From contig JAXMOL010000040.1 in the NCBI GenBank assembly GCA_034669905.1, forward strand, positions 14,411 to 78,410: a DNA stretch of 64,000 bases. The letters run 5' to 3'. Each line of letters opens with the position of its first letter. Positions within the stretch are counted from its first letter, which is position 1. This document shows positions 15,293 through 31,201 of the stretch, one piece after another. Both the position numbers and the translations under genes were made by a program. The stretch comes from Candidatus Hydrogenedentota bacterium. Its GTDB lineage: Bacteria; Hydrogenedentota; Hydrogenedentia; Hydrogenedentales; JAEUWI01. The notes under the pieces are model-generated. The model searched no databases. It saw only the letters and a program-made list of their open reading frames with translations, and was not told where the DNA came from.

Positions 15293-18055
15293 GTGGTTAT
15301 GACTGGAATTCTGCGACATAGGCGTTGGGCCTTGCTGGCCATGGTGGCCTTATTGGCTAGTGCATGGGCCATTGCCCAAGGGCAATCTCCCACGTCGCCC
15401 CGACCCCGACCCGACATCCCGGACAATAGCACCGACCCCGTTGATGGCGCATCGGGCGCGCCCACGAACAGTCGCTTTGGCGAAGGCGGACCCCGCTTTG
15501 GCCCAGACACCACCTCCGATGAGGGTGTGAAGAACCCACCCATTCGGCGGGCAACACGCCGAGAATCCCGTGACTCGGGCAGCACCCCGATACGCGCCGT
15601 CACCGGCGGTAAAGTACACAACGCCCCGCCCGCCACGGGCCTCATCATGGGTAACGGTGCAGCTATCCCGCCCGCCAACGCGACCAACCCACCCGCAGGA
15701 CAGGAGCTCAATGTGGTGGGGAACGATAATGCAGCGCGATTCCTGCGCAATACCAACCGCTTCGATGCGATCCTCCAGCGGGAAGTCACCTACGCGCCCC
15801 TCCCGGAGGGCGGTGAGGCCATCATGGAGGTCATTGGCCCCATGAGTGTCTCGGAGTTCATGCAGGACATCCGTATCGCAACGATGTGGAATGTGCTCAT
15901 TTCCGACGCGGTGAAAGATAAGATCCTCGATTTCGCCATTACGAAGGCTACGCCCCAGCAGGCCATGGAAATTCTGAAGTTCCATGACCTCTATTATGAG
16001 TACGACCCGGCCACCGAATACCTCTACGTCATGTCCATCGAGGAATGGCAGGAGCGGGAATTCGGCGACTTGACCCAGCACACCTTCGCGCTGGAGCACA
16101 CCGATGGAGAATATCTCCAGACCCTCTTACTCCCCCTTCTTTCCAGCCGGGGACGAATCATTCTGGACAGCCGTACCCGGCGCATCCACGTGTGGGATTC
16201 GGTCGATAACATTGAACTCATGGAAGCCACGGTCGCCGAAGCCGACGTACCCATGGGAAAACGGGAGTTCAAGGTCGATTTTGCCGATTTTGCCGATATC
16301 CAGGCCGCCATGATATCCATGCTCAGTGCCAACGGCAGCCTCCTTCCCGACAGCCGCACCAGCACGATCATCGTCTGGGACCAACCCGACGTGCTCACCC
16401 GCATGGAAGAGGCCCTCGGCACCATTGATGTGCCCGTCGCTTCCCGTACCTTCTACCTCCAACATGTGCACGCGGAAGACATGCTGGATCACCTGGAAGT
16501 CATGATCTCGGAGCGGGGCGTCATCCAGATCGATCCGCGCTACAATGCCATCATCGTTTCCGACCTGCCCGGCAAACTCGACCGCATTGAAGAGGTGCTT
16601 CAGGCTCTCGATCAGGAACTCGAATCCCGTACCTGGGTCATCGATTATGCCGACCTCGATTTCATTGCAGAACAGATCGAATCTCGCATCCCCCCGGAAA
16701 TGGGCGAGATCATTGTCCACGAAGAAGTCCATCAGATTACGGTAAAAGGCATCCCGTCGCGCCTCGACGAGATTGAGGCCCTCATCAAGGTCTGGGACAT
16801 ACAACGGAAGCAGGTTCAGATCGAGGCCTTCATCGTGGAAGTTGGCAGCGATGTGGAGCGTGAGTTCAATATCAACTGGTCCTACTTCGGCTCGTCAGAC
16901 GGGCGCCCCATCTTCGCCGACGGGGGCACGGGCTTTCAACCGGACGGCGGCAATCTCAATGTCGGCCAGCTTCCCTACACGGTGCCCCTTTACGGTGCCC
17001 TGGAGCTGGATGGTGCGGGCCAGATCGTACGGCCTCTCGTAACCAATACCGCCGGGGAAAATGTCGTCTCCCGGGTAGCGGGCAACAACCTCGCCGTCAC
17101 CCTCGATTATCTGGACCAGAAAAATAAGGCCACCGTACTTTCCTCCCCCCGGGTCGCCGTACAAGATGGCGAGGAAGCTTCCTTCGACCATGCGACCGAG
17201 GTGCCCTTCATCTCCTCCACCACCTTCTTTTCCAATGGCGGCCTGAATAACTTTGGCAACACCAACAACACCAACCGGGTTGAGTTCATTAACGTGGGAA
17301 CGATTCTGCGGGTCCTGCCCAGAATCACCACAAAAGACAATATCCTGCTGGACATCAGCGCCGAAGACAGCACCTTCGTCGAAGTCCGGGTCCTCGCCAG
17401 TGACCAGCAATCCACCATCCCCCAGAAAACGGTCCGTCGCGCCGAAACCCAGCTGCGCATCCAATCGGGCGACACCGTCGTGCTCGGCGGTCTGCGCAGG
17501 GACCGTTCCGGCCAGACCGAGAACCGAACGCCCCTCTTGGGAGATCTTCCCGGCATAGGCCGCCTCTTCCGCTATCCCAATCGCCAATCGGAAAAAAACA
17601 CCCTGCTCATTTTCATCACCCCCACCATCGTGGATGAATTCACCGACCCGGCCGCCGAAATTCTCGCCCGTGCCGAGGAGACCATCGCGGAATCCCACCG
17701 CCACAATCAGAAGAGCTTGTGGGGACGCCTGGCCGCCTCCGTCTCAAGACAGAAAAACGAACTGAGCATCGCCGTCGGGCAGAGTGGTGATATTCATGCC
17801 GAAGGTGAGCGCGCCACCCTCCCCGAACTGGAGACCCTTTTTGCCGAAGCCCCCGCCCAGGTAGGGGTCGTGCTCCGCGCCCACCCCCGGGCACCCGACC
17901 GGATCGTCGCCGCGATTACCGAGCTGGCCCTCGATGCCGACCGCAAGCTGGAATTGGACAAGGATCTCATTCCCCTGATTCCCCGCTACCGCCCGTCCCC
18001 GGCGGAGAGCCCGGAACCCACAACCATTGAGGCATCAACGCCCCTCGAACCATAG
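15293..18055 (+). CDS. gspD: Type II secretion secretin GspD-like
   Basis: Signal peptide, N-domain repeats, QVQIEAFIVEV, VLSSPRV, VGTILRVLPRI, TVVLGGL, PLLGDLPGIGRLF and LLIFITPTIV motifs. Confidence 0.9.
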   Translation: MVMTGILRHRRWALLAMVALLASAWAIAQGQSPTSPRPRPDIPDNSTDPVDGASGAPTNSRFGEGGPRFGPDTTSDEGVKNPPIRRATRRESRDSGSTPIRAVTGGKVHNAPPATGLIMGNGAAIPPANATNPPAGQELNVVGNDNAARFLRNTNRFDAILQREVTYAPLPEGGEAIMEVIGPMSVSEFMQDIRIATMWNVLISDAVKDKILDFAITKATPQQAMEILKFHDLYYEYDPATEYLYVMSIEEWQEREFGDLTQHTFALEHTDGEYLQTLLLPLLSSRGRIILDSRTRRIHVWDSVDNIELMEATVAEADVPMGKREFKVDFADFADIQAAMISMLSANGSLLPDSRTSTIIVWDQPDVLTRMEEALGTIDVPVASRTFYLQHVHAEDMLDHLEVMISERGVIQIDPRYNAIIVSDLPGKLDRIEEVLQALDQELESRTWVIDYADLDFIAEQIESRIPPEMGEIIVHEEVHQITVKGIPSRLDEIEALIKVWDIQRKQVQIEAFIVEVGSDVEREFNINWSYFGSSDGRPIFADGGTGFQPDGGNLNVGQLPYTVPLYGALELDGAGQIVRPLVTNTAGENVVSRVAGNNLAVTLDYLDQKNKATVLSSPRVAVQDGEEASFDHATEVPFISSTTFFSNGGLNNFGNTNNTNRVEFINVGTILRVLPRITTKDNILLDISAEDSTFVEVRVLASDQQSTIPQKTVRRAETQLRIQSGDTVVLGGLRRDRSGQTENRTPLLGDLPGIGRLFRYPNRQSEKNTLLIFITPTIVDEFTDPAAEILARAEETIAESHRHNQKSLWGRLAASVSRQKNELSIAVGQSGDIHAEGERATLPELETLFAEAPAQVGVVLRAHPRAPDRIVAAITELALDADRKLELDKDLIPLIPRYRPSPAESPEPTTIEASTPLEP

Positions 18056-19246: not shown

Positions 19247-21706
19247 ATGCCGCCTATGGCGCCGAATACACTCTTTCAAGCACTGATTTCCTTCGAAAGA
19301 GCGGGGTGGGAAGGGGCATTCGCCCGCCGCGTTATTGGTTCAACGCCCAGCGAGGTTTACGTTATCAAGCGCCTGCCACTTATACCCATCCTTTTGGCCC
19401 CATTCCTTTTTGCGACGACCGGCGATGCCCTTACCGATGAAGAACTCCTCCCTATCCGGGACGGTTTCGAGGGACGCCGTGACACCTATCTGAAGGACTA
19501 CCTCGCCGCCCCCATTTATGAATTCGACGAAGGCATCGTGGCCAGTGGCACCCACATCAGCGACGCCCGTTGGATATGGTATCCGGGCGAAATGGCCGAC
19601 CGTAGCGCCCCCATTGGCGCCCGACATTTTCAACGAAGCGTCGTGATTCCTGAGGGTCGTGTCCTCCAAAAGGCCTATTGCGCATTTGCCGCCGACAATT
19701 ACGGCGATATCTTGATTAACGGAGAACGCGTGGGCCGCTCCAGTGGCTTTCAAAAAGCCACCGTGCTGGACATCACGAGACGACTCACCGAGACCGAAAA
19801 CCACATCGAAGTTTCCGCCCACAATGCCGGCGACGCCCCCAACCCCGCGGGTATCGCCGGTGTAATTCACCTGGAGTATAGCGATGGCCCTCCCCAGCTG
19901 ATCTACACCGATGCGGACTGGGCCGTACGCAAAGAGACCGAAACCGCCTGGAGCCCGGCCGAAGTATTGGGGACGACCGGAATGGCTCCCTGGGGGCCCG
20001 TGGGCCTCGAAGTGGAGGGCTATGTAAACCGCTACGTATTCACGCGATTAACCTATGCGCTCGCCGCCCTCTACTTAAACGAGGACCTTTCCCAGGCGAA
20101 CGCCTACATTATTGAATCCGTGGACCAAATCCGCAGACAGCACCAGTCGGTGGGTGAGTTCGGCCTCCACTGGATGGGAGGAGCCTTCTACCGGATCTAT
20201 GGGCTCTTCGGTCCCAGTGGAACCCGCGGTGAGCTACTTAATCCGGAGGCCTCCCAAAAGGTCTGGCAGCTCTTCGCCGACTGGGCCGTAGAAGAGTGTG
20301 ATATCGCCAACGTCAATCCCGAGTACACCTGGCGGCTCTGGGGCAGCGAGAATCACAGTGCCCAACGAGACGCCACCACCTGGGCCGCTGCACGTATGAT
20401 CGCCCTGGAAGCACGGGGGCGCAACCTGGTATATGCCGACGGCCATAGTCCAGAGGCCCACCTGGAGGCCTCCCGGGCCTTCATGAAACGCTACTTTCGA
20501 GAACGTATCAAGCGCGGTATGTTGGTGGAGATATCCCCCTCCGGGTATGGCTCCCGCACGCTTCAGGGGTGGCACAACATCTACGACTTCAGCACCGACC
20601 CCGAGCTGAAGCAGCTGGCCATATCGGCCCTCGATCTCTGGTGGGCCGAGTGGGCTCAGGAACAGCTGGGGCAAATGCGTGGCGGTGGGAAGACGCGGCT
20701 CTACCCCGGTGCCTGGGCCCTGTCTGGCCACGACCGCAACCGTGCTATGAGCTGGTTTTACCTCGGCGAAGGGCACCCGGCCCATCAGCACGAAACCCTC
20801 CCCGTCATTGCGACGACCGAATACCGCCTTCCCCTGGTCGTCATGGACATTGCCCTCGATCCCGAAGGGCGCGGTGTCTATGAGTGTCGTTCCCGAAAAC
20901 TCGGCCGCCATCTGAGTTATGAGTCCTCCCTCAAGCTCTCAAAACCCAATGAACCCGTCTACGATGTCGATCCGGAATATGGTGGCATTGTGCGCTATTC
21001 TTATTGCACGCCTGACTTCATCATGGGAACCTTGCTTCTCGAAAACCGCCCCAAAGAATATTGGACGGCGATCAGCCAGCAGAACCGTTGGCACGGCATC
21101 ATCTTCTCCGGCGACCGGGACTCCACCCTCTACCCCCGCTGCGCCACCAGCCGGAGCACCTACAATGGTCAGTGGGCGATTCAGCACAAAGGCACATTAA
21201 TTACGCAGAAACTGCGCGATTCCGATCAGGCCGGTGCCATGCGGGTATGTGCCTCCGAGGATCTCAAACGCGAGGAAGAGAATGGATGGCTCTTTTTGGA
21301 AGCCACCGGCGCCTATGCGGCCGTAAAGATTGTCCACGGCGGCAGCACCTGGGAAAACAAACGGTGGTTGCGTTGTGAGGATGAATTCACGCCCATCATA
21401 TTTGAAGTGGTTCGAAAGCAGGACTTCAACCACGACTACAATGCCTTTAAAGACGCCATCGCGAAACAGCACATTACCCTGGAGCAGGGAGTGCTGGAAT
21501 ATAAAGGTCTGCAGGACTCGGGCGAGTTCACCTTCTACACCGAAAGTGACCGCGCCCCTGAACTCAATGGCGAACCCATCGCGCTGGCACCGGACTATGG
21601 CATCCAGAGTCCGTTCATCGTTTCCCGGTGGGCAGAAGGGGTGGTAAAAATACAGAAAGACACGCGCGTACTCACCATCGATGTACGCCACAACGACGCG
21701 ACGTGA
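19247..21706 (+). CDS. Large secreted protein with N-terminal jelly-roll (rhamnosidase-N-like) domain; true start probably near 19364
   Basis: ARWIWYP, FAADN..ING, NPAG, TDADW and PWG motifs; signal-peptide-like segment begins about 19364. Confidence 0.6.
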   Translation: MPPMAPNTLFQALISFERAGWEGAFARRVIGSTPSEVYVIKRLPLIPILLAPFLFATTGDALTDEELLPIRDGFEGRRDTYLKDYLAAPIYEFDEGIVASGTHISDARWIWYPGEMADRSAPIGARHFQRSVVIPEGRVLQKAYCAFAADNYGDILINGERVGRSSGFQKATVLDITRRLTETENHIEVSAHNAGDAPNPAGIAGVIHLEYSDGPPQLIYTDADWAVRKETETAWSPAEVLGTTGMAPWGPVGLEVEGYVNRYVFTRLTYALAALYLNEDLSQANAYIIESVDQIRRQHQSVGEFGLHWMGGAFYRIYGLFGPSGTRGELLNPEASQKVWQLFADWAVEECDIANVNPEYTWRLWGSENHSAQRDATTWAAARMIALEARGRNLVYADGHSPEAHLEASRAFMKRYFRERIKRGMLVEISPSGYGSRTLQGWHNIYDFSTDPELKQLAISALDLWWAEWAQEQLGQMRGGGKTRLYPGAWALSGHDRNRAMSWFYLGEGHPAHQHETLPVIATTEYRLPLVVMDIALDPEGRGVYECRSRKLGRHLSYESSLKLSKPNEPVYDVDPEYGGIVRYSYCTPDFIMGTLLLENRPKEYWTAISQQNRWHGIIFSGDRDSTLYPRCATSRSTYNGQWAIQHKGTLITQKLRDSDQAGAMRVCASEDLKREEENGWLFLEATGAYAAVKIVHGGSTWENKRWLRCEDEFTPIIFEVVRKQDFNHDYNAFKDAIAKQHITLEQGVLEYKGLQDSGEFTFYTESDRAPELNGEPIALAPDYGIQSPFIVSRWAEGVVKIQKDTRVLTIDVRHNDAT

Positions 21707-21709
21707 GCC

Positions 21710-22867
21710 CTAGTCCCCCATCTCATCGTGAATCGCGATAAACCTCGCTTCTACGGCGACAAAGGCGTCGATGAGCTGGGGGTCGAAATGCTCGCCCCGC
21801 TCCGCCAAGAGGATGCTCCGTGCCTTTTCGTGGGAAAAGGGCTCCTTGTAGCAGCGCCGACTGCGCAGGGCGTCATATACATCACCCACCGCCATGATGC
21901 GCGCCGCGAGGGGGATAGCGTTTCCACGAAGCCCTTGGGGGTAGCCCTTGCCATTCCATTTCTCATGATGGCTCTGCGCGATCTCAATTCCCACCTGAAT
22001 AAAGCTATTGTTCGGATGTTGCTGAAACACCGCCCGCAAATTATTCGCCCCGATTTCCGCGTGGGTCTTCATGGTGTCAAACTCTTCCGCCGTCAGCCTC
22101 CCCGGCTTATTGAGAATCGCATCGGGAATCGCCACCTTGCCAATGTCATGCAAGGGGCTCGCATGGGCCACGTTTTTCGCAAACTCCTCGTCCACTTCTG
22201 TATGCCCCGGAAGTCCCTTTAGATACGCGGTAATCGCTGTGCAGTAAAGCTGGGTACGCTCAATGTGCTTGCCCGTATCATCATCGCGCGCCTCCGCGAT
22301 CTTACACATGGCCATAATGGTGGCCAGTTGGGCCTGTGAAACCTCCTCCTTTGCCGTGATGACCTCCCGCGTACGCTGCTCCACGAGTTCGCTGAGATCG
22401 TCATTGTGCTGCTTCAGGGCGATACGAAGCTGACGAAGTTTGATGTGCGTGTCGATGCGGGCCTGAACCTCCTCAAAGTTGAAGGGCTTGGTAATATAGT
22501 CCAGCCCCCCTTTTCGGAACGCCTCTAACTTGTCATTCGTATCGCTCAGCGCACTAATAAAAATCACCGGGATATCTGCGGTCTTCTCGTCCCCTTTCAG
22601 CCGTTCGCAGACTTCATAGCCATCCATATCGGGCATGTTGATATCCAGGAGAATCAAGTCCGGAGGAGCGCTCGCTGCGGCACGGAGTGCCATGGCGCCG
22701 TTGGGACAGGGCCGGGCATCATAACCCGAACGGCGCAGCATGTCCTGCAAAAGCCTTAAGTTTGCCACCGTATCGTCCACAATGAGGACGGTAGGTCTAT
22801 CGCTGGAACCTGTCATTGACTGCCTTTCGTATTCAAGTCCATCCAACTCATTTCCGCTTCTCATCAT
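21710..22867 (-). CDS. Response regulator with HD-GYP c-di-GMP phosphodiesterase domain (RpfG-like)
   Basis: REC (LIVDD, LLDINMP, DYITKPF); HDIGK, HHEKWNGKGYP and DVYDALRS.R.YK motifs. Confidence 0.92.
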   Translation of the reverse strand: MMRSGNELDGLEYERQSMTGSSDRPTVLIVDDTVANLRLLQDMLRRSGYDARPCPNGAMALRAAASAPPDLILLDINMPDMDGYEVCERLKGDEKTADIPVIFISALSDTNDKLEAFRKGGLDYITKPFNFEEVQARIDTHIKLRQLRIALKQHNDDLSELVEQRTREVITAKEEVSQAQLATIMAMCKIAEARDDDTGKHIERTQLYCTAITAYLKGLPGHTEVDEEFAKNVAHASPLHDIGKVAIPDAILNKPGRLTAEEFDTMKTHAEIGANNLRAVFQQHPNNSFIQVGIEIAQSHHEKWNGKGYPQGLRGNAIPLAARIMAVGDVYDALRSRRCYKEPFSHEKARSILLAERGEHFDPQLIDAFVAVEARFIAIHDEMGD

Positions 22868-25800
22868 GACTTCGTTGTTGATTCGACCTCATCCAGCAGG
22901 CGCAGTATTTCGTCGTATTCAAACTGGTCCGCGAAACCTTGCAGCAACGCCCCCAACCCCGCGTGCTCGTCCTCCAGTTGTGCGAGGATTGCGGCGATAC
23001 GTTCTCCATGACAACTGACCGCAGCATCTCGCAACTCCTCCCGCACCGAATCCGGCAGTGCAGAGAACTGTCCGGAAACTGGCTCGCTCGAATCCTTGCC
23101 AGGGGGCTCCTCGTCACTATAGCGATACGAGACAAACAGATTCTCCCGTATGGCCTCAAGAATAGACGGAATCGAATAGGGTTTTCGCACAAAGCCATCG
23201 GCCCCCGCGCGCAGGACCTTTTCTTTCTCTTCCTCAAACACGGTGGCCGTTGCCACCACGATGGGCAAGGTCTGAAGTTCTTTCTTTGCTCTTATTTCTG
23301 CGATGGTCTCATAGCCATCCATACCGGGCATCGCGATATCCAGAAATACCAGATCCGGTGTCCGCTCAAAAACTGTCTTCACGGCACTGGCCCCATCCTT
23401 GCAAGACCGTACCGCGAAGCCAACCCGCTCAAGGATTGCACGGAGGAGTTCCAGGTTACTGACCATGTCATCGACGATCAGGATCTCCGGAGCGGGGCCG
23501 CCGCCCGCGAGGCCGATCACATGGCGCTCCCGACTCCCCACCACCAGGCCATCATTCACGGCCCCAATCGTTACCGGTAGTTCCAATCGGAAAACACTAC
23601 CTTGACCTTCCTCGCTCTCCACCGTAAGGTCACCGTCCATCAGCCGCGCATACTGACGGCTGATCGGAAGTCCTAAGCCCGTCCCTGACGAAGCCCCTCT
23701 CCCGGAAGCCGTCTGAACAAACGCCTCGAACACCTGATCCATTTCTGCGGCGGAAATACCCGGTCCCGTATCGTGCACTTCCACCGTCAATCGGCATACT
23801 CCCGGTCGCAGTAACGGGGCCTGAGCCCAGAGGCGAATGCCTCCCTCCTCCGTAAATTTTGCCGCGTTTCCCAACAGGTTATACAGGATCTGGCGAATCT
23901 TTCCCTGGTCCCCATGAATTATCCGGGGCGTACCACGCTCACACTGCACCTCAAAGCTCAGTGCTTTTTTGTTCGTCTTCAATCGAAACGTTTGCTCCAA
24001 TTCCCGAAGCAACCCGTAAAAATCAAACTCGGTTGGATTCAGGGTGGCACTCCCGGATTCAATCTTGGACATGTCCAGGATATCATTGATGACCGCCAAG
24101 AGGTGCTCACCACTTCGATTGATGGTTTGCACGTGGGTGAGCTGTTCCCCACTGAGCTCTCCGGACTCTTCCAGCAACTGTGAGAATCCCAGGATCGCGT
24201 TCATGGGGGTTCGTATCTCATGCGACATGTTGGCCAGGAATGCGCTCTTCGCCGTGCTGGCGATCTCTGCTTCCTGCTTCGCCCGCACCGACTCCAGCTC
24301 GGCCTGCTTGCGGCGCGTGATGTCCTCAAAAGCAACCACCACATGGGTCTGCTCCTGAATCAGAAATCGATTCCCTCGAATCGTATAGTGACTGCAGCAG
24401 TCGGCCGGCCCATAGCTGAGATCCAATTCGAAGGCGGCGCAATCCCCGTTGATTACATTGTGGAGTAAGCGAACAGCCCGAAGACACGCGGTATCTCCCT
24501 GCTTCCCCATCTCCTCCAGGCGCCGGATCAAGCTGTCGGAAAGGTCCAGCGAATTCTCCCCCCCCTGGGCAAACATCCCCAAATCGCGCCACGCCTTGTT
24601 GACAAACAAAATCATTCCGGAATCATCCACCACACAAACATGGTTCGTCAGTGAATCCAGGGTGTACTCCACGAATCGCCGCGTAGCCGCCACCTCACGT
24701 GTTCGGGCATTGACCCGTTCCTCCAGGGTCGCATTGAGCTCTCGAATCCGCTCCTGCTGTTTTTTTTGTTCCGTGATGTCCCGATTAATACTGAAAAACT
24801 TTACAAATTCCCCGTCCCGATTGAAAATCGGTTGAATGTGCAGTTCGATCCAGTACGAAGCACCGGACTTGGTGTAGTTCAAGATCTCCTCGCGAATCGC
24901 CTGCCGCTCGCGCAGTGCCGCACCAATACGTGTTACGGTCGCCTGGTCCGTGTCAGGCCCCTGAAGGAACCTACCCGGCTTCTTGCCCAACACTTCATCC
25001 AGTGAATACCCCGTGAGGCGTGTAAAGCCCGGGTTCGTCCATTCGATGTGGCCCTCCTTGTCCGTCATGATGACCGTGTTATCCGTTTCACTGGCGATAA
25101 GGGCCAGCTTGCGCAACTCCGCTTTGTCACGGGCACGCCCGGTCACATCAACGCCCGTCACGACCACATGGCTCGGTGCCCCCAAGCTGTCCGTAGCCAG
25201 CACGCTGCTCCATTCCACCAGGCGCAGTTCTTCCCCGGGGCCCGTCCAGTAGCTTCGGTGGGTGTTGGGAAAGGCCGCCCCCGAGAAGCGCTCAAAAAGC
25301 ACCTCCATCTCCTGGCGCTTTTCCGGCAGCACCATCAAGGCACTGAACGGCGTTCCCAGCACGTGCTCCTTGCTACGCCCCGTCACCAACTCGAAGGCCC
25401 GGTTTATTCGTCGAATACGGCCCGTAAGGTCAAGGACGAGAATGAGCGCTTCCACATGGTTCAGCACGACCGACATGAAATTTCGCTCAGACCGCAACTG
25501 CCCTTCCAGGCGCTTCCCCCGGAGGCTGTAACGGATGGCACGGTCCAGCAATGCGGCGGAAAGGGACTCCTTGACCAGATAATCCATGGCCCCCGCAGAC
25601 ATGGCTTCTACATCCATTTCGTAGTTGCTCTGCCCCGTCAGCATAATAAAGGATACCGACGGATGCCTCGGCACACCATTGCGTATAAATGTCAGACCAT
25701 CGGTGCTGCCGAGGCGGGAATCGACCAACGCCACGTCAAAGCGAGACTCCATCAGCAGTCGCTCACCCGTTTCTGCGGTCGCCGCCCAGACCGTTTCGTA

Positions 25801-25908
25801 ATGCCCATCCACCGCCTGGCTAAGCAAGTCGCGGGCGACAATATAGTCATCTTGATCCTCGTCAATGACGAGGACCCGTACACCGCGCTCTCCCGATTCT
25901 TCCGACAT
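22864..25908 (-). CDS. Hybrid sensor histidine kinase (REC-PAS-PAS-PAS-HisKA-HATPase-REC)
   Basis: FLANMSHEIRTPMN, NLLGNAAKFT, DTGPGI and GTGLGL boxes; N- and C-terminal receiver domains. Confidence 0.92.
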   Translation of the reverse strand: MSEESGERGVRVLVIDEDQDDYIVARDLLSQAVDGHYETVWAATAETGERLLMESRFDVALVDSRLGSTDGLTFIRNGVPRHPSVSFIMLTGQSNYEMDVEAMSAGAMDYLVKESLSAALLDRAIRYSLRGKRLEGQLRSERNFMSVVLNHVEALILVLDLTGRIRRINRAFELVTGRSKEHVLGTPFSALMVLPEKRQEMEVLFERFSGAAFPNTHRSYWTGPGEELRLVEWSSVLATDSLGAPSHVVVTGVDVTGRARDKAELRKLALIASETDNTVIMTDKEGHIEWTNPGFTRLTGYSLDEVLGKKPGRFLQGPDTDQATVTRIGAALRERQAIREEILNYTKSGASYWIELHIQPIFNRDGEFVKFFSINRDITEQKKQQERIRELNATLEERVNARTREVAATRRFVEYTLDSLTNHVCVVDDSGMILFVNKAWRDLGMFAQGGENSLDLSDSLIRRLEEMGKQGDTACLRAVRLLHNVINGDCAAFELDLSYGPADCCSHYTIRGNRFLIQEQTHVVVAFEDITRRKQAELESVRAKQEAEIASTAKSAFLANMSHEIRTPMNAILGFSQLLEESGELSGEQLTHVQTINRSGEHLLAVINDILDMSKIESGSATLNPTEFDFYGLLRELEQTFRLKTNKKALSFEVQCERGTPRIIHGDQGKIRQILYNLLGNAAKFTEEGGIRLWAQAPLLRPGVCRLTVEVHDTGPGISAAEMDQVFEAFVQTASGRGASSGTGLGLPISRQYARLMDGDLTVESEEGQGSVFRLELPVTIGAVNDGLVVGSRERHVIGLAGGGPAPEILIVDDMVSNLELLRAILERVGFAVRSCKDGASAVKTVFERTPDLVFLDIAMPGMDGYETIAEIRAKKELQTLPIVVATATVFEEEKEKVLRAGADGFVRKPYSIPSILEAIRENLFVSYRYSDEEPPGKDSSEPVSGQFSALPDSVREELRDAAVSCHGERIAAILAQLEDEHAGLGALLQGFADQFEYDEILRLLDEVESTTKS

Positions 25909-25917
25909 AGCCCCTCG

Positions 25918-26376
25918 TTACCCGGCTTCAGAGGTGTTGGCGGGCAGCTTCACCATCTTGAACCAGTAATGGTCTATAGACTCCAGTATATGCACCAGCC
26001 CCTGGAAGGAGACGGGTTTGGTAAAAAAACCTGCGGCTCCCAATTCATAGCACCGAAGCACATCCTCCTCGGCTTTGGAAGTTGTCAAGACCACAACGGG
26101 TATAGGACAGAGACGCTCGTTCCCCTTCAGGTACTCCAATACCTGTCGCCCGTTCAGCCGGGGGAGATTCAGATCGAGCACAATCAAGTCCGGTACGAGC
26201 GTTGCCCCGCTCTCCCCGCCTTTGCCAAGATAATCGACGAGTTCCTGACCGTCATTGACAGTGATAAGGGTGTGCGGAAGCTTCGTCGCTTCCAACGCCT
26301 CCCGCGCGAGGAGCTGATCATCGGGATCGTCCTCGGCCAACAACATGACAAACTGCTCTTTCGCGTCCATGCTCAA
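25918..26376 (-). CDS. Stand-alone receiver, Rcp1-like (phytochrome-kinase-associated type)
   Basis: LLAEDDPDD, PDLIVLDLNLP, PVVVLTTS, KPV and C-terminal YWF..VKLP motifs. Confidence 0.9.
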   Translation of the reverse strand: MSMDAKEQFVMLLAEDDPDDQLLAREALEATKLPHTLITVNDGQELVDYLGKGGESGATLVPDLIVLDLNLPRLNGRQVLEYLKGNERLCPIPVVVLTTSKAEEDVLRCYELGAAGFFTKPVSFQGLVHILESIDHYWFKMVKLPANTSEAG

Positions 26377-27656
26377 ATCATCCCTTCCGAACGGTCACTA
26401 TCCGACGAGGACACCGTCGACATCTCGGGCAATACGATAACGAAGGTCGTGCCTTCACCGAGGGTACCCTCTACCGAGATACTCCCTCCATGACGCTCGA
26501 CAATCTTCCTGCAAATGCTTAAGCCAATCCCGCTACCTTCATAGGCCATACGGGGATTCAGCCGAGTGAATGGTTGAAACAGGCGACTCGCGTGGGAGGG
26601 GTCGAGCCCAATCCCCTTATCGGCCACAGTAATTTTTACCCGCTGATCGGGCAACGGTTCCGACGCGACCGTGATATGGGCCGGTCGCTCGGCTTCCCGA
26701 AACTTCAGTGCGTTACCAATCAGGTTCTGGAAGAGTTGATTCATTTGAACCCCGTCCGCGGCAACCGTTGGAAGCGGGTGGCGTACGATCTCGGCCCCTT
26801 CCTGGACGATCCGCGCATCAAAGGTCTCCAGAACATCGTCCAGTACCGTATCCAGATTCACCGGTCCGAATACCCGACGTTGAGAAGACACGCGGGAGTA
26901 ATCCAACAGGCCGTCGATCATCGTTTGCATGCGGGTCGCAGAACCTATGATCCGACGCAAATCATCTTCTGCCCGCGCGTTCAAGGTGCCATCGGAAGAC
27001 GTCTGCAGACGCCCGCCAAAGGTTCGAATCTTCCGCAAGGGCTCCTGCAAATCATGGGAGGCGATATGGGCAAAATCCTGCAGTGCCTGATTACTCTTCT
27101 CCAGATCTTGCTGCGCCCGCTTACTCTCCCGGACTTCGGCTTCCAGGGCCAGGTTGGCCATGCGAAGTTCCTGGGTTTGCGCGTCGACCTTTTCCTGCAA
27201 CACCTCGCGATGCTGCCGCAATTCCCTCTCCACCGCGGTGCGTCGCTCGATTTCGCGTTGCAATTCGTTGTTGAGTGAAGCCAGACCAGGCAATTCCATG
27301 GCGCCCGGCAGAATGCGGATCAACGCCAGCACGGTCAGCCACGATACCGACGCCGTAATGACTTTCATCGTTCCCGCGACCCGGTACGCAGGCCACCAGA
27401 AAATCCCCGCTTCCACCAGATGACTGATCCCGCAGGCGAGGATAAAGGTACAGAAGAGCCAGCCGATCGCTGGGAAGGAGAGGTCGCCCTTTTTCAAGAG
27501 AAAGTAGGCGATTACGATGGGAATGGCCGTATACGCGCCAAAAATAGCCACATCCGCTATCACATGGACCCAGCCGTGGAACGTGGTCCAATTCCCGCAA
27601 TACCATCGTGCCGGGAAGTCGGTGGTGTCTATCAGCGTACCCACAAGTCCGTTCAA
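26373..27656 (-). CDS. Membrane histidine kinase with ETR1-like ethylene-binding 3-TM domain
   Basis: ADVAIFGAYTAIP, FILACGISHL and KVITASVS segments; Cph1-type ASHDLQEPLRKI, NLIGNALKF and GSGIGL; TTG start after GGAGGAAGG. Confidence 0.85.
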   Translation of the reverse strand: MNGLVGTLIDTTDFPARWYCGNWTTFHGWVHVIADVAIFGAYTAIPIVIAYFLLKKGDLSFPAIGWLFCTFILACGISHLVEAGIFWWPAYRVAGTMKVITASVSWLTVLALIRILPGAMELPGLASLNNELQREIERRTAVERELRQHREVLQEKVDAQTQELRMANLALEAEVRESKRAQQDLEKSNQALQDFAHIASHDLQEPLRKIRTFGGRLQTSSDGTLNARAEDDLRRIIGSATRMQTMIDGLLDYSRVSSQRRVFGPVNLDTVLDDVLETFDARIVQEGAEIVRHPLPTVAADGVQMNQLFQNLIGNALKFREAERPAHITVASEPLPDQRVKITVADKGIGLDPSHASRLFQPFTRLNPRMAYEGSGIGLSICRKIVERHGGSISVEGTLGEGTTFVIVLPEMSTVSSSDSDRSEGMI

Positions 27657-27855
27657 CGTACCTTCCTCCAGCCTACCGTATTAGCCCCCCCGGTTCCGAG
27701 TGTCCATTATCATGCAATCTCCCGTTATATTCAAGATGAACCGCAAAATAGCACGGGAAATAATCGCTTTATCTCGCCGTGATATCGGGACTTATGGGCA
27801 TCAAGGCGATGCCCGCGCCCCCCCCGGCGTTTGCGCAGGTGCCCCGCGCGAACAC

Positions 27856-27889
27856 AAAAAAACCGACGGGCAGATGCTCGTCGGTTTGG
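27856..27889 (-). terminator. Rho-independent terminator downstream of tRNA-Cys
   Basis: Minus strand AAACCGACGAGC-ATCT-GCCCGTCGGTTT continuing into a T run. Confidence 0.8.
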
Positions 27890-27899
27890 ATTAATAAAC

Positions 27900-27973
27900 T
27901 GGAGGCGGCACTCGGAATCGAACCGAGGATAAGGGCTTTGCAGGCCCCTGCCTTACCACTTGGCCATGCCGCC
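27900..27973 (-). tRNA. tRNA-Cys(GCA)
   Basis: Minus strand GGCGGCATGGCCAAGTGGTAAGGCAGGGGCCTGCAAAGCCCTTATCCTCGGTTCGATTCCGAGTGCCGCCTCCA; cloverleaf, GCA anticodon, encoded CCA. Confidence 0.97.
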
Positions 27974-28024
27974 TCAAGAAGGGAAGCGAATTATAGTCAA
28001 CGAAACCCGATCATGTCAAACCCA

Positions 28025-29072: not shown

Positions 29073-30503
29073 TTAGCCCTGTCCCAGCATGATACTGTAA
29101 GAGGCAAACGCGTGGGGCGGCAAGGTGTCGTGAAAGGTATTCCCATCCGCGGTGAGTTCGATGCGCTCCGGACTCACCCGTTTCGGCGATTCAAAGCTAT
29201 TCTCTGCCGAGGCAGAATCCGCATGAAGCAAACGGCCCGAAAGAGAGGCGATGTCCCCTTCACGTATCTCGACCTGGAGCGGTATCGTTTCGGTGTAGCT
29301 TCGATTCACGACGGTAATACACAGTCGTTTTCCCTGCCGGGAAGCGCTTACCTGTAACGCGGGTATACGACCCGCCTTTCCGCCCGCCTTTTCGTGGGCC
29401 AGCTGTGGCGACTCCAGACGATGGGTCAGAAGACGGGAACCGCGGTGGCAACGCATCATGTCCAAGACGTGATAGGTCGGTGTCAGAAACATGGCCGGAC
29501 CTTCCGTCTTGGCCAGGCATTGCAGCGCATTGATCGCTTGTGCCATCGCCGCCATCGAAACATGGCCGGCATGTTGATTCAACACCTGATAGACCGAGGC
29601 CGCCAACAGCGCATCACGCAAGGTATTGGGCTGCTCCAATCCATTCTCCGCATCCGCCTCGTCGTGCCAGACCCCCCAGGAGCCCAGGGCAATGGCAGGC
29701 GCCTGTTCCCCATAGTAACGGTAGAGTTCGGCGATCAGTCGTTTCAGTTTCCGCTCAAACCCCTGCAAGGCCCCCCAGGTCTGGTAATACCCCTCTTTCC
29801 CAAAGGTCGCGCCTGAACCAAGACGAAAATAGTGGCTGACCGACAGTCCGGCGATGCCCAGGCCCTGCGCATGATATCGCTTCACCGGATAGACGCGTTC
29901 TGGTTCCCAGGCCTCATTGAGCGGGACAATCAGATCAATTTCAGGATTGAGTGCGGGCAGGCCTTCCAGATTCCAATCCGTACAACGGCTCATTCCCCAT
30001 AGCGGGAGATCGAAGGGCTCTGGACTGCCGTTGTGGCACCGTGCTGCCGTACGCTCGGTATCTCCCCCGAAGGTGCCGTATTCCACCCAGGACAATGCTT
30101 CATCCAAGGTACCCGTAAGCCCGTTGGTATTGACCCAGGGCCGACACTCGAGCTTATCGCACAACCCCGCGAATTCATGGGTACCAAAGGTATTCGGCTC
30201 AATCTGCTGCCAGGGCACGTTAATACGGTGGGGTCGATTGCCTCCCGTCCCCACGCCGTCGCCCCAATGATAGTAGTCGGCGAAATGATCCCCGGGCCAC
30301 TTGAGCACCGGCACGCGCAGATGTTTGAAAAGGGCCAGCACATCCAGCCGCAATCCGTCTTCGTTGGCGTTCCCCGAACTGCGGCCCGCCCAGATTCCGT
30401 CGTAGACACTACGCCCCACCATCTCCATCTGATAGCCATAGATCTCCGGGGATATGGTGGGGCCGCCAAGGGCAGGCCAGACCCGTAACTGTGCGTGTTT
30501 CAT
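29073..30503 (-). CDS. GH51 alpha-L-arabinofuranosidase homologue, catalytic Glu residues apparently absent
   Basis: ISPEIYG, YDGIW, KWPG.HFADYYHW.DGVG, EPNTFGTHEF, EQPNTLRDAL, AQAINALQ and LTPTYHV motifs. Confidence 0.8.
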   Translation of the reverse strand: MKHAQLRVWPALGGPTISPEIYGYQMEMVGRSVYDGIWAGRSSGNANEDGLRLDVLALFKHLRVPVLKWPGDHFADYYHWGDGVGTGGNRPHRINVPWQQIEPNTFGTHEFAGLCDKLECRPWVNTNGLTGTLDEALSWVEYGTFGGDTERTAARCHNGSPEPFDLPLWGMSRCTDWNLEGLPALNPEIDLIVPLNEAWEPERVYPVKRYHAQGLGIAGLSVSHYFRLGSGATFGKEGYYQTWGALQGFERKLKRLIAELYRYYGEQAPAIALGSWGVWHDEADAENGLEQPNTLRDALLAASVYQVLNQHAGHVSMAAMAQAINALQCLAKTEGPAMFLTPTYHVLDMMRCHRGSRLLTHRLESPQLAHEKAGGKAGRIPALQVSASRQGKRLCITVVNRSYTETIPLQVEIREGDIASLSGRLLHADSASAENSFESPKRVSPERIELTADGNTFHDTLPPHAFASYSIMLGQG

Positions 30504-31201
30504 TCCCCGTCGCCCACGGGGTGATCATATTGATCAAGGTAGGGAAACACACGGTCGGTGATAAAGCTCCGCACCCCGCGCACGTGGTCGGAGATAACCT
30601 CCAGCGCACCACTATCCACTTTCTGGTGGGCAAATATCCCTTTGACCTCCACATAGACTTCTGAGCGAGACTGGCGGAACGATTCGATGTTTACTTGCAG
30701 ATTGCCGGGGTATTCGTCGGTTTCTGGCAGGGTAAAGCGAAGGCCACCCACCGCGATGGGCCGCTGAAAATGAGGACCAATCCGGTTTGCCTGCTGGCAC
30801 ACCTGCTCGAGTAGAAATACCCGTGCGTCATCGAAATGACTCAGTGCAAAGGTAGACCGGATGGTGGCCGTGTGGGCAAGAAAAGAATCAAATTCCTCGA
30901 ATTCCAGGAGCTTTCCGGCCATCGCCTCGACCCGCTCCAGAAAAGCGCTCATGGGGATATCGGCCCACTCCTCGATCATGAGGACGCGGTCGGGCAGGAA
31001 TAGCGCGACCGACTGGGAGCGCTTGCCCTGTTTGGAGTAAAAGCGCGGCTGAACCATGCGGGTGAAATCGGTGCTGTCATACCCGGCATTGCGGATTTGT
31101 GACAACTCGAAATAGAGCTTTTGTAAGGCTTCTTTTTTGTGTTTAATCGGTTTGTGTACGAGCTCGACACCGAAATGGATTACACGGTCTTCCGATTGCA
31201 T
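30500..31201 (-). CDS. Hypothetical protein
   Basis: 233-aa ORF with RBS, ATGA-coupled to the GH51-like gene; no family recognised with confidence. Confidence 0.7.
   Translation of the reverse strand: MQSEDRVIHFGVELVHKPIKHKKEALQKLYFELSQIRNAGYDSTDFTRMVQPRFYSKQGKRSQSVALFLPDRVLMIEEWADIPMSAFLERVEAMAGKLLEFEEFDSFLAHTATIRSTFALSHFDDARVFLLEQVCQQANRIGPHFQRPIAVGGLRFTLPETDEYPGNLQVNIESFRQSRSEVYVEVKGIFAHQKVDSGALEVISDHVRGVRSFITDRVFPYLDQYDHPVGDGE

Follow-up and report, generated by a model that had tools for sequence, protein, structure and literature searches.

A phytochrome-type histidine kinase with an ETR1-type membrane domain and a coiled-coil linker heads a four-gene operon in a Candidatus Hydrogenedentota bacterium

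In the Arabidopsis receptor ETR1, copper is reported to be bound through Cys65 and His69 together with Asp25, which also bridges to Lys91 (PMC10266040), and Ile35, Pro36 and Ile62 are described as essential (PMC6586836). Putative ethylene receptors with varied outputs have been described in many bacteria (PMC7700396; PMC6682694). For one of them, AzoEtr1 of Azospirillum brasilense Sp7, it is reported that all seven residues for ethylene binding are present, that Asp35, Cys75, His79 and Lys98 are the equivalents of ETR1 Asp25, Cys65, His69 and Lys91, that residues 1–130 bind labelled ethylene saturably, that D35A and C75A variants fail to complement, and that ethylene decreases biofilm formation; ethylene is reported to lower the activity of ETR1 and predicted to do so for AzoEtr1 (PMC11819568). 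Our plasmid search returned 19 records, seven of them from Azospirillum, and an A. brasilense Sp7 gene (L004:3501-5078, 525 aa) fits AzoEtr1 by the description in that paper.

The locus described here lies in a window of 64,000 nucleotides from a Candidatus Hydrogenedentota bacterium (assembly GCA_034669905.1, contig JAXMOL010000040.1, positions 14,411 to 78,410); all coordinates below are those of the window unless a locus handle is given. On the reverse strand, 26373..27656 encodes a sensor histidine kinase of 427 residues in which the open reading frame and Pfam together delineate an ETR1-type three-helix membrane domain, a coiled coil, HisKA and HATPase_c. The start codon is TTG, where two orthologues (L020, L021) have ATG, and a Shine-Dalgarno-like GGAGG (27665..27669, reverse strand) is placed 8 nt 5' of it. 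A contig of a separate study (run X4) spans 27344–27955 with two differences, both upstream of the kinase frame; the kinase region is therefore no assembly artefact. The closest titled locus over the membrane domain (L022, 94% identical) also belongs to Candidatus Hydrogenedentota; a search of the assembly for 16S motifs gave none.

Profile searches place the membrane region in ETR1_N (PF25487) itself, and not in some unrelated family, at 104.9 bits against a cut-off of 27 (E 2.7e-30), with 95 of 97 profile positions covered; Atlas clusters of the same family scored 0.93–0.95. The domain occupies residues 27–121 (27294..27578, reverse strand) and, as judged from PF25487, the AzoEtr1 alignment and a structural model, carries D35, Y42, I45, P46, I72, C75, H79, K98, T101, S105 and P117. 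Its alignment to AzoEtr1 is gapless, with 47 of 125 positions identical and D35, Y42, I45, P46, I72, C75, H79 and K98 shared, and it was through this alignment and Pfam, not through a plant sequence, that residues were mapped onto ETR1. The complete set of seven ethylene-binding residues (D35, Y42, I45, P46, I72, C75 and H79) that the first-pass annotation had read from the letters is thereby confirmed, Tyr42 being the counterpart of ETR1 Tyr32, which we take to be the seventh residue needed for ethylene binding. The constant offset of +10 to ETR1 that had been proposed alongside holds for helices 1 and 2 and fails in helix 3, where the offset is +7 (K98 corresponds to ETR1 K91).

An AlphaFold model of the 125-residue domain, built from a 39-row alignment, consists of helices at 25–55, 62–84 and 91–119 (pLDDT 92), and the hydropathy peaks agree with these three N-terminal helices, as befits three transmembrane segments. 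Sequence and profile searches of the PDB with the membrane domain gave no relative, Foldseek with the model gave nothing at E 0.001, and a wide structural search brought up nothing but generic helical bundles, the best with Z 9.3 and an rmsd of 4.5 across 105 residues, matches that speak neither for nor against any family; no solved structure of an ETR1-type domain turned up in the PDB by either sequence or fold.

Set beside Arabidopsis ETR1 and ERS1, the window kinase shares the equivalents of D25, C65, H69, K91, T94, S98 and P110 as well as the Pfam family, a comparison drawn through AzoEtr1 and Pfam; the plant receptors, as described, differ by possessing GAF and a pair of N-terminal disulfide cysteines and by signalling mainly via CTR1 (PMC10266040, PMC6586836). 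Where the plant proteins have GAF, the window kinase has a coiled coil of 75 residues. SynEtr1 (Slr1212) of Synechocystis and GeiEtr1/2 of Geitlerinema, likewise compared by description, are similar in their ETR1-type domain, seven residues, single N-terminal Cys and His-kinase output; they differ by their GAF (and PAS) domains and phototroph hosts, and SynEtr1 is also light-sensing (PMC6682694, PMC7700396).

The linker just mentioned comprises residues 126–200 (27057..27281, reverse strand), matches no domain and contains neither Pro nor Gly; its heptad periodicity is evident from a hydrophobic period of 3.5 residues that only 9 of 2000 shuffled sequences equalled. It leads into HisKA (Pfam match at 192–258; 26883..27083, reverse strand), whose H-box S-H-D-L-Q-E-P-L supplies the phospho-acceptor H201, and then into HATPase_c (301–411; 26424..26756, reverse strand), whose N, G1, F and G2 boxes are intact. 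Pfam matched neither GAF nor PAS in the whole protein or in the linker alone. Among PDB entries, the kinase core is closest to one titled only 'histidine kinase', followed by bacteriophytochromes, and motifs, Pfam and these matches together identify a phytochrome-type core. The next gene (25918..26370, reverse strand), whose ATG lies 2 nt past the kinase stop codon, encodes a single-domain response regulator of the Rcp1/RcpA type (150 aa, acceptor D66) by Pfam and by its matches to Rcp1/RcpA structures in the PDB (1JLK, 1K68, 5IC5). Intact phytochrome-type HisKA/HATPase boxes with an adjoining Rcp1-like regulator are the marks of a Cph1/Rcp1-type pair, and so the reading of the first-pass annotation, a Cph1-type kinase joined through a coiled coil without GAF or PAS, is upheld. 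Known Cph1/Rcp1 phytochrome modules (bacteriophytochrome kinases 8UPH, 9YS3) share the kinase core and single-domain regulator and differ in having a photosensory module where the window kinase has an ETR1-type membrane domain.

Two more genes on the same strand complete an operon that the kinase heads. One (22864..25908) encodes, by Pfam, a 1014-residue hybrid kinase with a receiver, PAS domains, HisKA, HATPase_c and a second receiver; the other (21710..22867), which overlaps the hybrid-kinase stop by 4 nt, encodes a REC-HD-GYP protein of 385 residues, a predicted c-di-GMP phosphodiesterase by Pfam in which the HD and GYP motifs are present. We take the operon to resemble branched phytochrome pathways that include a receiver-first hybrid kinase. 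AzoEtr1 and its partner AzoRR-Etr1 are alike in the three-helix N-terminal domain, the D35/C75/H79/K98 numbering, the absence of GAF and a single-domain regulator directly after the kinase. The differences are that AzoEtr1 has a PAS domain, a P-H-G-x-C outer motif (the HG subfamily defined below) and a plant-associated host, whereas the window kinase proceeds by coiled coil to a phytochrome-type kinase and is followed by the hybrid kinase and HD-GYP genes. An 819-residue frame converges on the operon (19247–21706, forward strand), with a weak sugar-binding or rhamnosidase-like match at residues 101–253 and no family for the rest. The window also encodes a 920-residue secretin (15293–18055, forward strand) whose four Secretin_N repeats are accompanied by long extensions at both termini, and a 233-residue frame without a Pfam match (30500–31201, reverse strand) that overlaps the start of an alpha-L-arabinofuranosidase-like gene (29073–30503).

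The four-gene operon is common to three of the nine genomes of the genus, and its gene order is kept in L023/G069 and, as far as the contig end, in L022/G065; a hybrid-kinase orthologue at E 1e-150 was found in 3 of 15 family genomes. Directly upstream is tRNA-Cys (27900..27973, reverse strand), as in both orthologous loci, and the operon begins 244 nt beyond its 3' end. Among the other genomes of the family in which this tRNA was found, the kinase was absent from the tRNA-Cys flank in 11 of 11 (flank of at most 1.5 kb, shorter at contig ends). In one genome of the genus (G064) the two upstream genes and the tRNA are the same, but the 905 nt left before the contig end hold no kinase; in five others a different gene, presumably rimK, occupies the site. 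The kinase is preceded at 50 nt by a promoter-like site with 9 of 12 consensus matches (27706..27734, reverse strand), which is no more than a match to the consensus, as seven such sites were found where 3.0 would be expected by chance; the tRNA-Cys has its own sigma-70 consensus promoter (12/12 at 28019–27990). The GC content of the operon (0.55–0.57) is below that of the four flanking genes (0.585–0.63), which with the position behind tRNA-Cys is suggestive of recent horizontal acquisition. That explanation is countered by the occupation of the same site in three genomes whose proteins are 59–82% identical; for this reason any insertion would be old.

The first-pass annotation had also implied that a domain of this kind is a rarity in this lineage and that its layout is minimal. 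Neither idea survives the surveys. Counting the own genome, 11 of 135 host-phylum genomes, 9 of 15 in the family and 7 of 9 in the genus have a PF25487 match above the cut-off. So do 29 of 251 genomes of Planctomycetota and 15 of 251 of Bacteroidota, counts that take in the seed genome; none of 14 control genomes does. Against 1.84 billion representatives clustered at 50% identity, the domain profile found 9,596 at E 0.001, 7,398 at 1e-10 and 1,847 at 1e-30. All seven residues are kept in 95 of 98 length-limited homologues (query included), 23 of which consist only of ETR1_N, HisKA and HATPase_c. Where the H-box could be located (144 of 243 proteins), the linker was at most 100 residues long in 44 and at most 50 in 12; linkers of about 30 residues exist in G071 and G061, and a Novosphingobium protein has only 384 residues. 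Thus neither the lineage nor the short sensor-kinase layout is rare, and the window kinase is an ordinary member of a known family, from an apparently unassayed branch. Across this family, a wide variety of outputs is fused to the domain.

A second ETR1_N kinase is encoded in the same genome (L003:7875-10621, G000:C26); it contains a single PAS domain, and genes for an Rcp1-like regulator and a receiver protein come after it. Its type (ETR1_N plus PAS) is present in more genomes of the genus than is that of the window kinase, and the His and G-x-G-R pattern of the PAS domain is, we presume, reminiscent of haem-binding FixL PAS domains. One relative has two ETR1_N-PAS-kinase genes about 2 kb apart (L008 and L019, G063:C29). 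Planctomycetota provide an ETR1_N–HDOD fusion (L034:5776-7326) and a 214-residue frame with ETR1_N alone (L041:5938-6579).

A further observation concerns the segment that precedes helix 1. Residues 14–23 (27588..27617, reverse strand) read F-P-A-R-W-Y-C-G-N-W and include a conserved C20; the segment is predicted to be periplasmic, given three helices and a cytoplasmic kinase. Alignments and trees make it the marker of what we name the RW subfamily. In a set of 417 distinct domains of at least 100 residues, a set biased by the queries used, positions 17–18 are R-W in 288, H-G in 127 and neither in two. The outer motif is P-x-R-W-x-C-G in the RW subfamily versus P-H-G-x-C (P-H-G-x-C-x-x-W) in AzoEtr1 and most cyanobacterial copies. 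The window protein, with P-A-R-W-Y-C-G-N-W, falls on the RW side of a branch that separates the RW and HG rows with an SH-aLRT of 100 in both of two quick, midpoint-rooted trees (83 rows and 51 rows; six fragment or broken rows were dropped from the former). These trees are without plant rows because a cyanobacterial query for plant ETR1 gave no plant-named protein among the best 120 of 2,208 matches.

AzoEtr1 is H-G and the cyanobacterial rows are nearly all H-G. One Brasilonema assembly (G138; L059/L079, L077) has R-W copies, one of them broken by TGA, in addition to a typical H-G copy; the R-W copies may reflect either transfer or a contaminated assembly. When the best match per genome was taken from evenly drawn samples and seeds were left out, the Planctomycetota sample (n=28) comprised 18 R-W, six H-G and four that were neither, and the Bacteroidota sample (n=14) two R-W, 11 H-G and one that was neither. 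Among the host-phylum matches examined, only L013:1426-3291 (G084) is H-G; the equivalents of P46 and I72 are Ser in this copy, which sits on a long branch. Our literature search found no experiment on the RW branch, and nothing on point by title or abstract about ethylene receptors in Planctomycetota, Bacteroidota or Hydrogenedentota; surveys outside that search may already list RW-type entries or such receptors.

All seven residues are kept in 270 of 288 RW and 124 of 127 HG domains, which points to strong constraint on the pocket residues. Fixed differences between the subfamilies are found at positions 15, 17, 18, 21, 28, 44, 83, 85, 86, 92 and 109 (R17/W18/G21/G28/A83/F86/R92 in RW versus H17/G18/Y21/V28/I83/L86/W92 in HG), and they cluster in the N-terminal loop and the helix 2–3 turn, that is, on the predicted periplasmic face. 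Judging by these alignments, the window kinase comes from a large, well-separated branch with a conserved inner pocket and a differing outer face. At position 98 about 7% of R-W rows carry Arg and about 3% Glu, with D35 kept, and 99% of H-G rows carry Lys; the R-W rows with Arg or Glu can be regarded as natural variants of the Asp–Lys bridge.

The same counts bear on the notion that the membrane domain is a mere anchor or dimerisation module without a ligand. The patchiness of the operon within the genus would suit a module of this sort. On the other hand, buried Asp, Cys and His are kept in 284 of 288 RW domains, and Lys in 254, for which an anchor would have no need, and orthologues are 84–94% identical in the membrane domain versus 70–82% across the whole protein. 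We regard a ligand-free role as highly improbable.

Propylene, acetylene, CO and isocyanide act at plant ethylene receptors, and the Cu(I) site might be real while the natural ligand is one of these or another small unsaturated or pi-acid molecule, with ethylene weak or incidental. A distinct subfamily with a remodelled outer face (positions 17, 18, 21, 28, 83, 86 and 92) would be in keeping with a changed ligand, as would its dominance in Planctomycetota (18/28), a group not known for a link with plants; propylene, too, is reportedly emitted by plastics (PMC6070199). However, the ethylene-binding residues, and T101, S105 and P117 with them, are as conserved as in the assayed subfamily, and most of the differences lie at helix ends, distant from the predicted copper site. 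We consider a different natural ligand rather unlikely.

C20, retained in 287 of 288 RW and 127 of 127 HG domains, raises the further alternative of a sensor of copper availability or periplasmic redox state, in which Cu(I) occupancy of C75/H79 or an inter-subunit C20 disulfide would set kinase activity without a gas. The single N-terminal Cys of cyanobacterial receptors, it has been suggested, may stand in for the plant disulfides (PMC6682694), and ethylene perception has been linked by hypothesis to ancient copper handling, although that hypothesis gained no further support (PMC10452086). Against such a sensor, AzoEtr1 has the same C20 yet binds ethylene, and I45, P46 and I72, non-ligand residues on which ethylene binding by ETR1 depends, are kept at 97–100%. 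Furthermore, neither the four-gene operon nor the scanned neighbours include a copper-handling gene, and a literature search for redox sensing by the domain gave nothing on point. We think it quite improbable that copper or redox state is the signal.

Ethylene sensing through Cu(I) is accordingly retained as the best inference for the window kinase. The anatomy is established: the identity of the domain, its conserved residues, the kinase and receiver motifs, and a four-gene operon in three genomes. As to function, we favour with moderate confidence a Cu(I)-dependent ethylene receptor that would signal through the three downstream genes to change c-di-GMP. By analogy with ETR1 and AzoEtr1, a homodimer would hold Cu(I) at C75/H79, where H79 is positioned by D35. 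Ethylene bound to the copper would act through the D35–K98 bridge to move helix 3, which may extend by way of the coiled coil into the H201 helix; autophosphorylation would probably be lowered. Gene order suggests that phosphate might then pass to two acceptors, the Rcp1-type regulator and the hybrid kinase's N-terminal receiver; the hybrid kinase may in turn control the HD-GYP phosphodiesterase and, through it, probably the choice between attachment and motility. Since the operon occurs in 3 of 9 genus genomes and the domain is fused to many outputs elsewhere, an output through c-di-GMP would be a local one.

The host genome (7.44 Mb, 95.7% complete) encodes two haem-copper oxidase subunit I genes, indicative of aerobic respiration, and four P1B ATPases; three of these were tested, and two scored better as copper than as Zn/Cd type. 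With these oxidases and ATPases the host can handle copper. A search for the photosynthetic reaction centre (PF00124) found none in the host genome while its control was positive, in agreement with the earlier view of a non-photosynthetic lineage; nitrogenase-like genes of the anaerobic ethylene pathway were not found either, again with a positive control. Searches with PF02332 and PF02461 for soluble di-iron and copper membrane monooxygenases gave 0 matches, and their positive controls were silent too.

With regard to habitat, three further studies yielded contigs nearly identical to that of the host, from sediment, marine and estuary runs (of the 14 runs listed, 4 were compared; X2, X6–X8 and X9–X14, the last with small shares, were left out of this reading), and there is no RNA dataset among the listed runs with such contigs. 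The best-matching run (X1) is a plastic metagenome that may be the source sample and hence is not independent support; a link between the genes and plastics was considered and dropped, there being nothing beyond the label of one study. Reported sources of ethylene include sunlight acting on dissolved organics (PMC11819568) and plastics, which are also named as a source of propylene (PMC6070199).

Bearing in mind that bacterial ETR1-type kinases are already catalogued and constitute a Pfam family, with an assayed non-photosynthetic member that has the same residue numbering, a single further gene adds little. Its value is that of a test case for a large RW branch on which our literature search found no experiment: the short sensor–coiled coil–kinase layout suits biochemistry or cryo-EM, and the operon suggests a direct c-di-GMP read-out. 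We tentatively raise one broader, and doubtful, proposition, that the RW subfamily, common in Planctomycetota and Hydrogenedentota, could form a functional class of its own, the second among ETR1-type Cu(I) gas sensors, in which the periplasmic lid has been rebuilt (one Trp occupies position 18 here and position 92 in the other class). On this view, aquatic bacteria not associated with plants might use it to detect ethylene or a related gas of algal, photochemical or plastic origin and, in the present case, to switch c-di-GMP-dependent attachment. If this were true, ethylene-type sensing would become a general trait of microbes, and the 427-residue protein with its canonical kinase would be a convenient model for the control of a kinase by a copper site. 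Cultured Planctomycetota, for example Blastopirellula or Rhodopirellula (loci L028, L054), carry the RW subfamily, and the signal that the domain detects in aquatic bacteria can therefore be tested directly.
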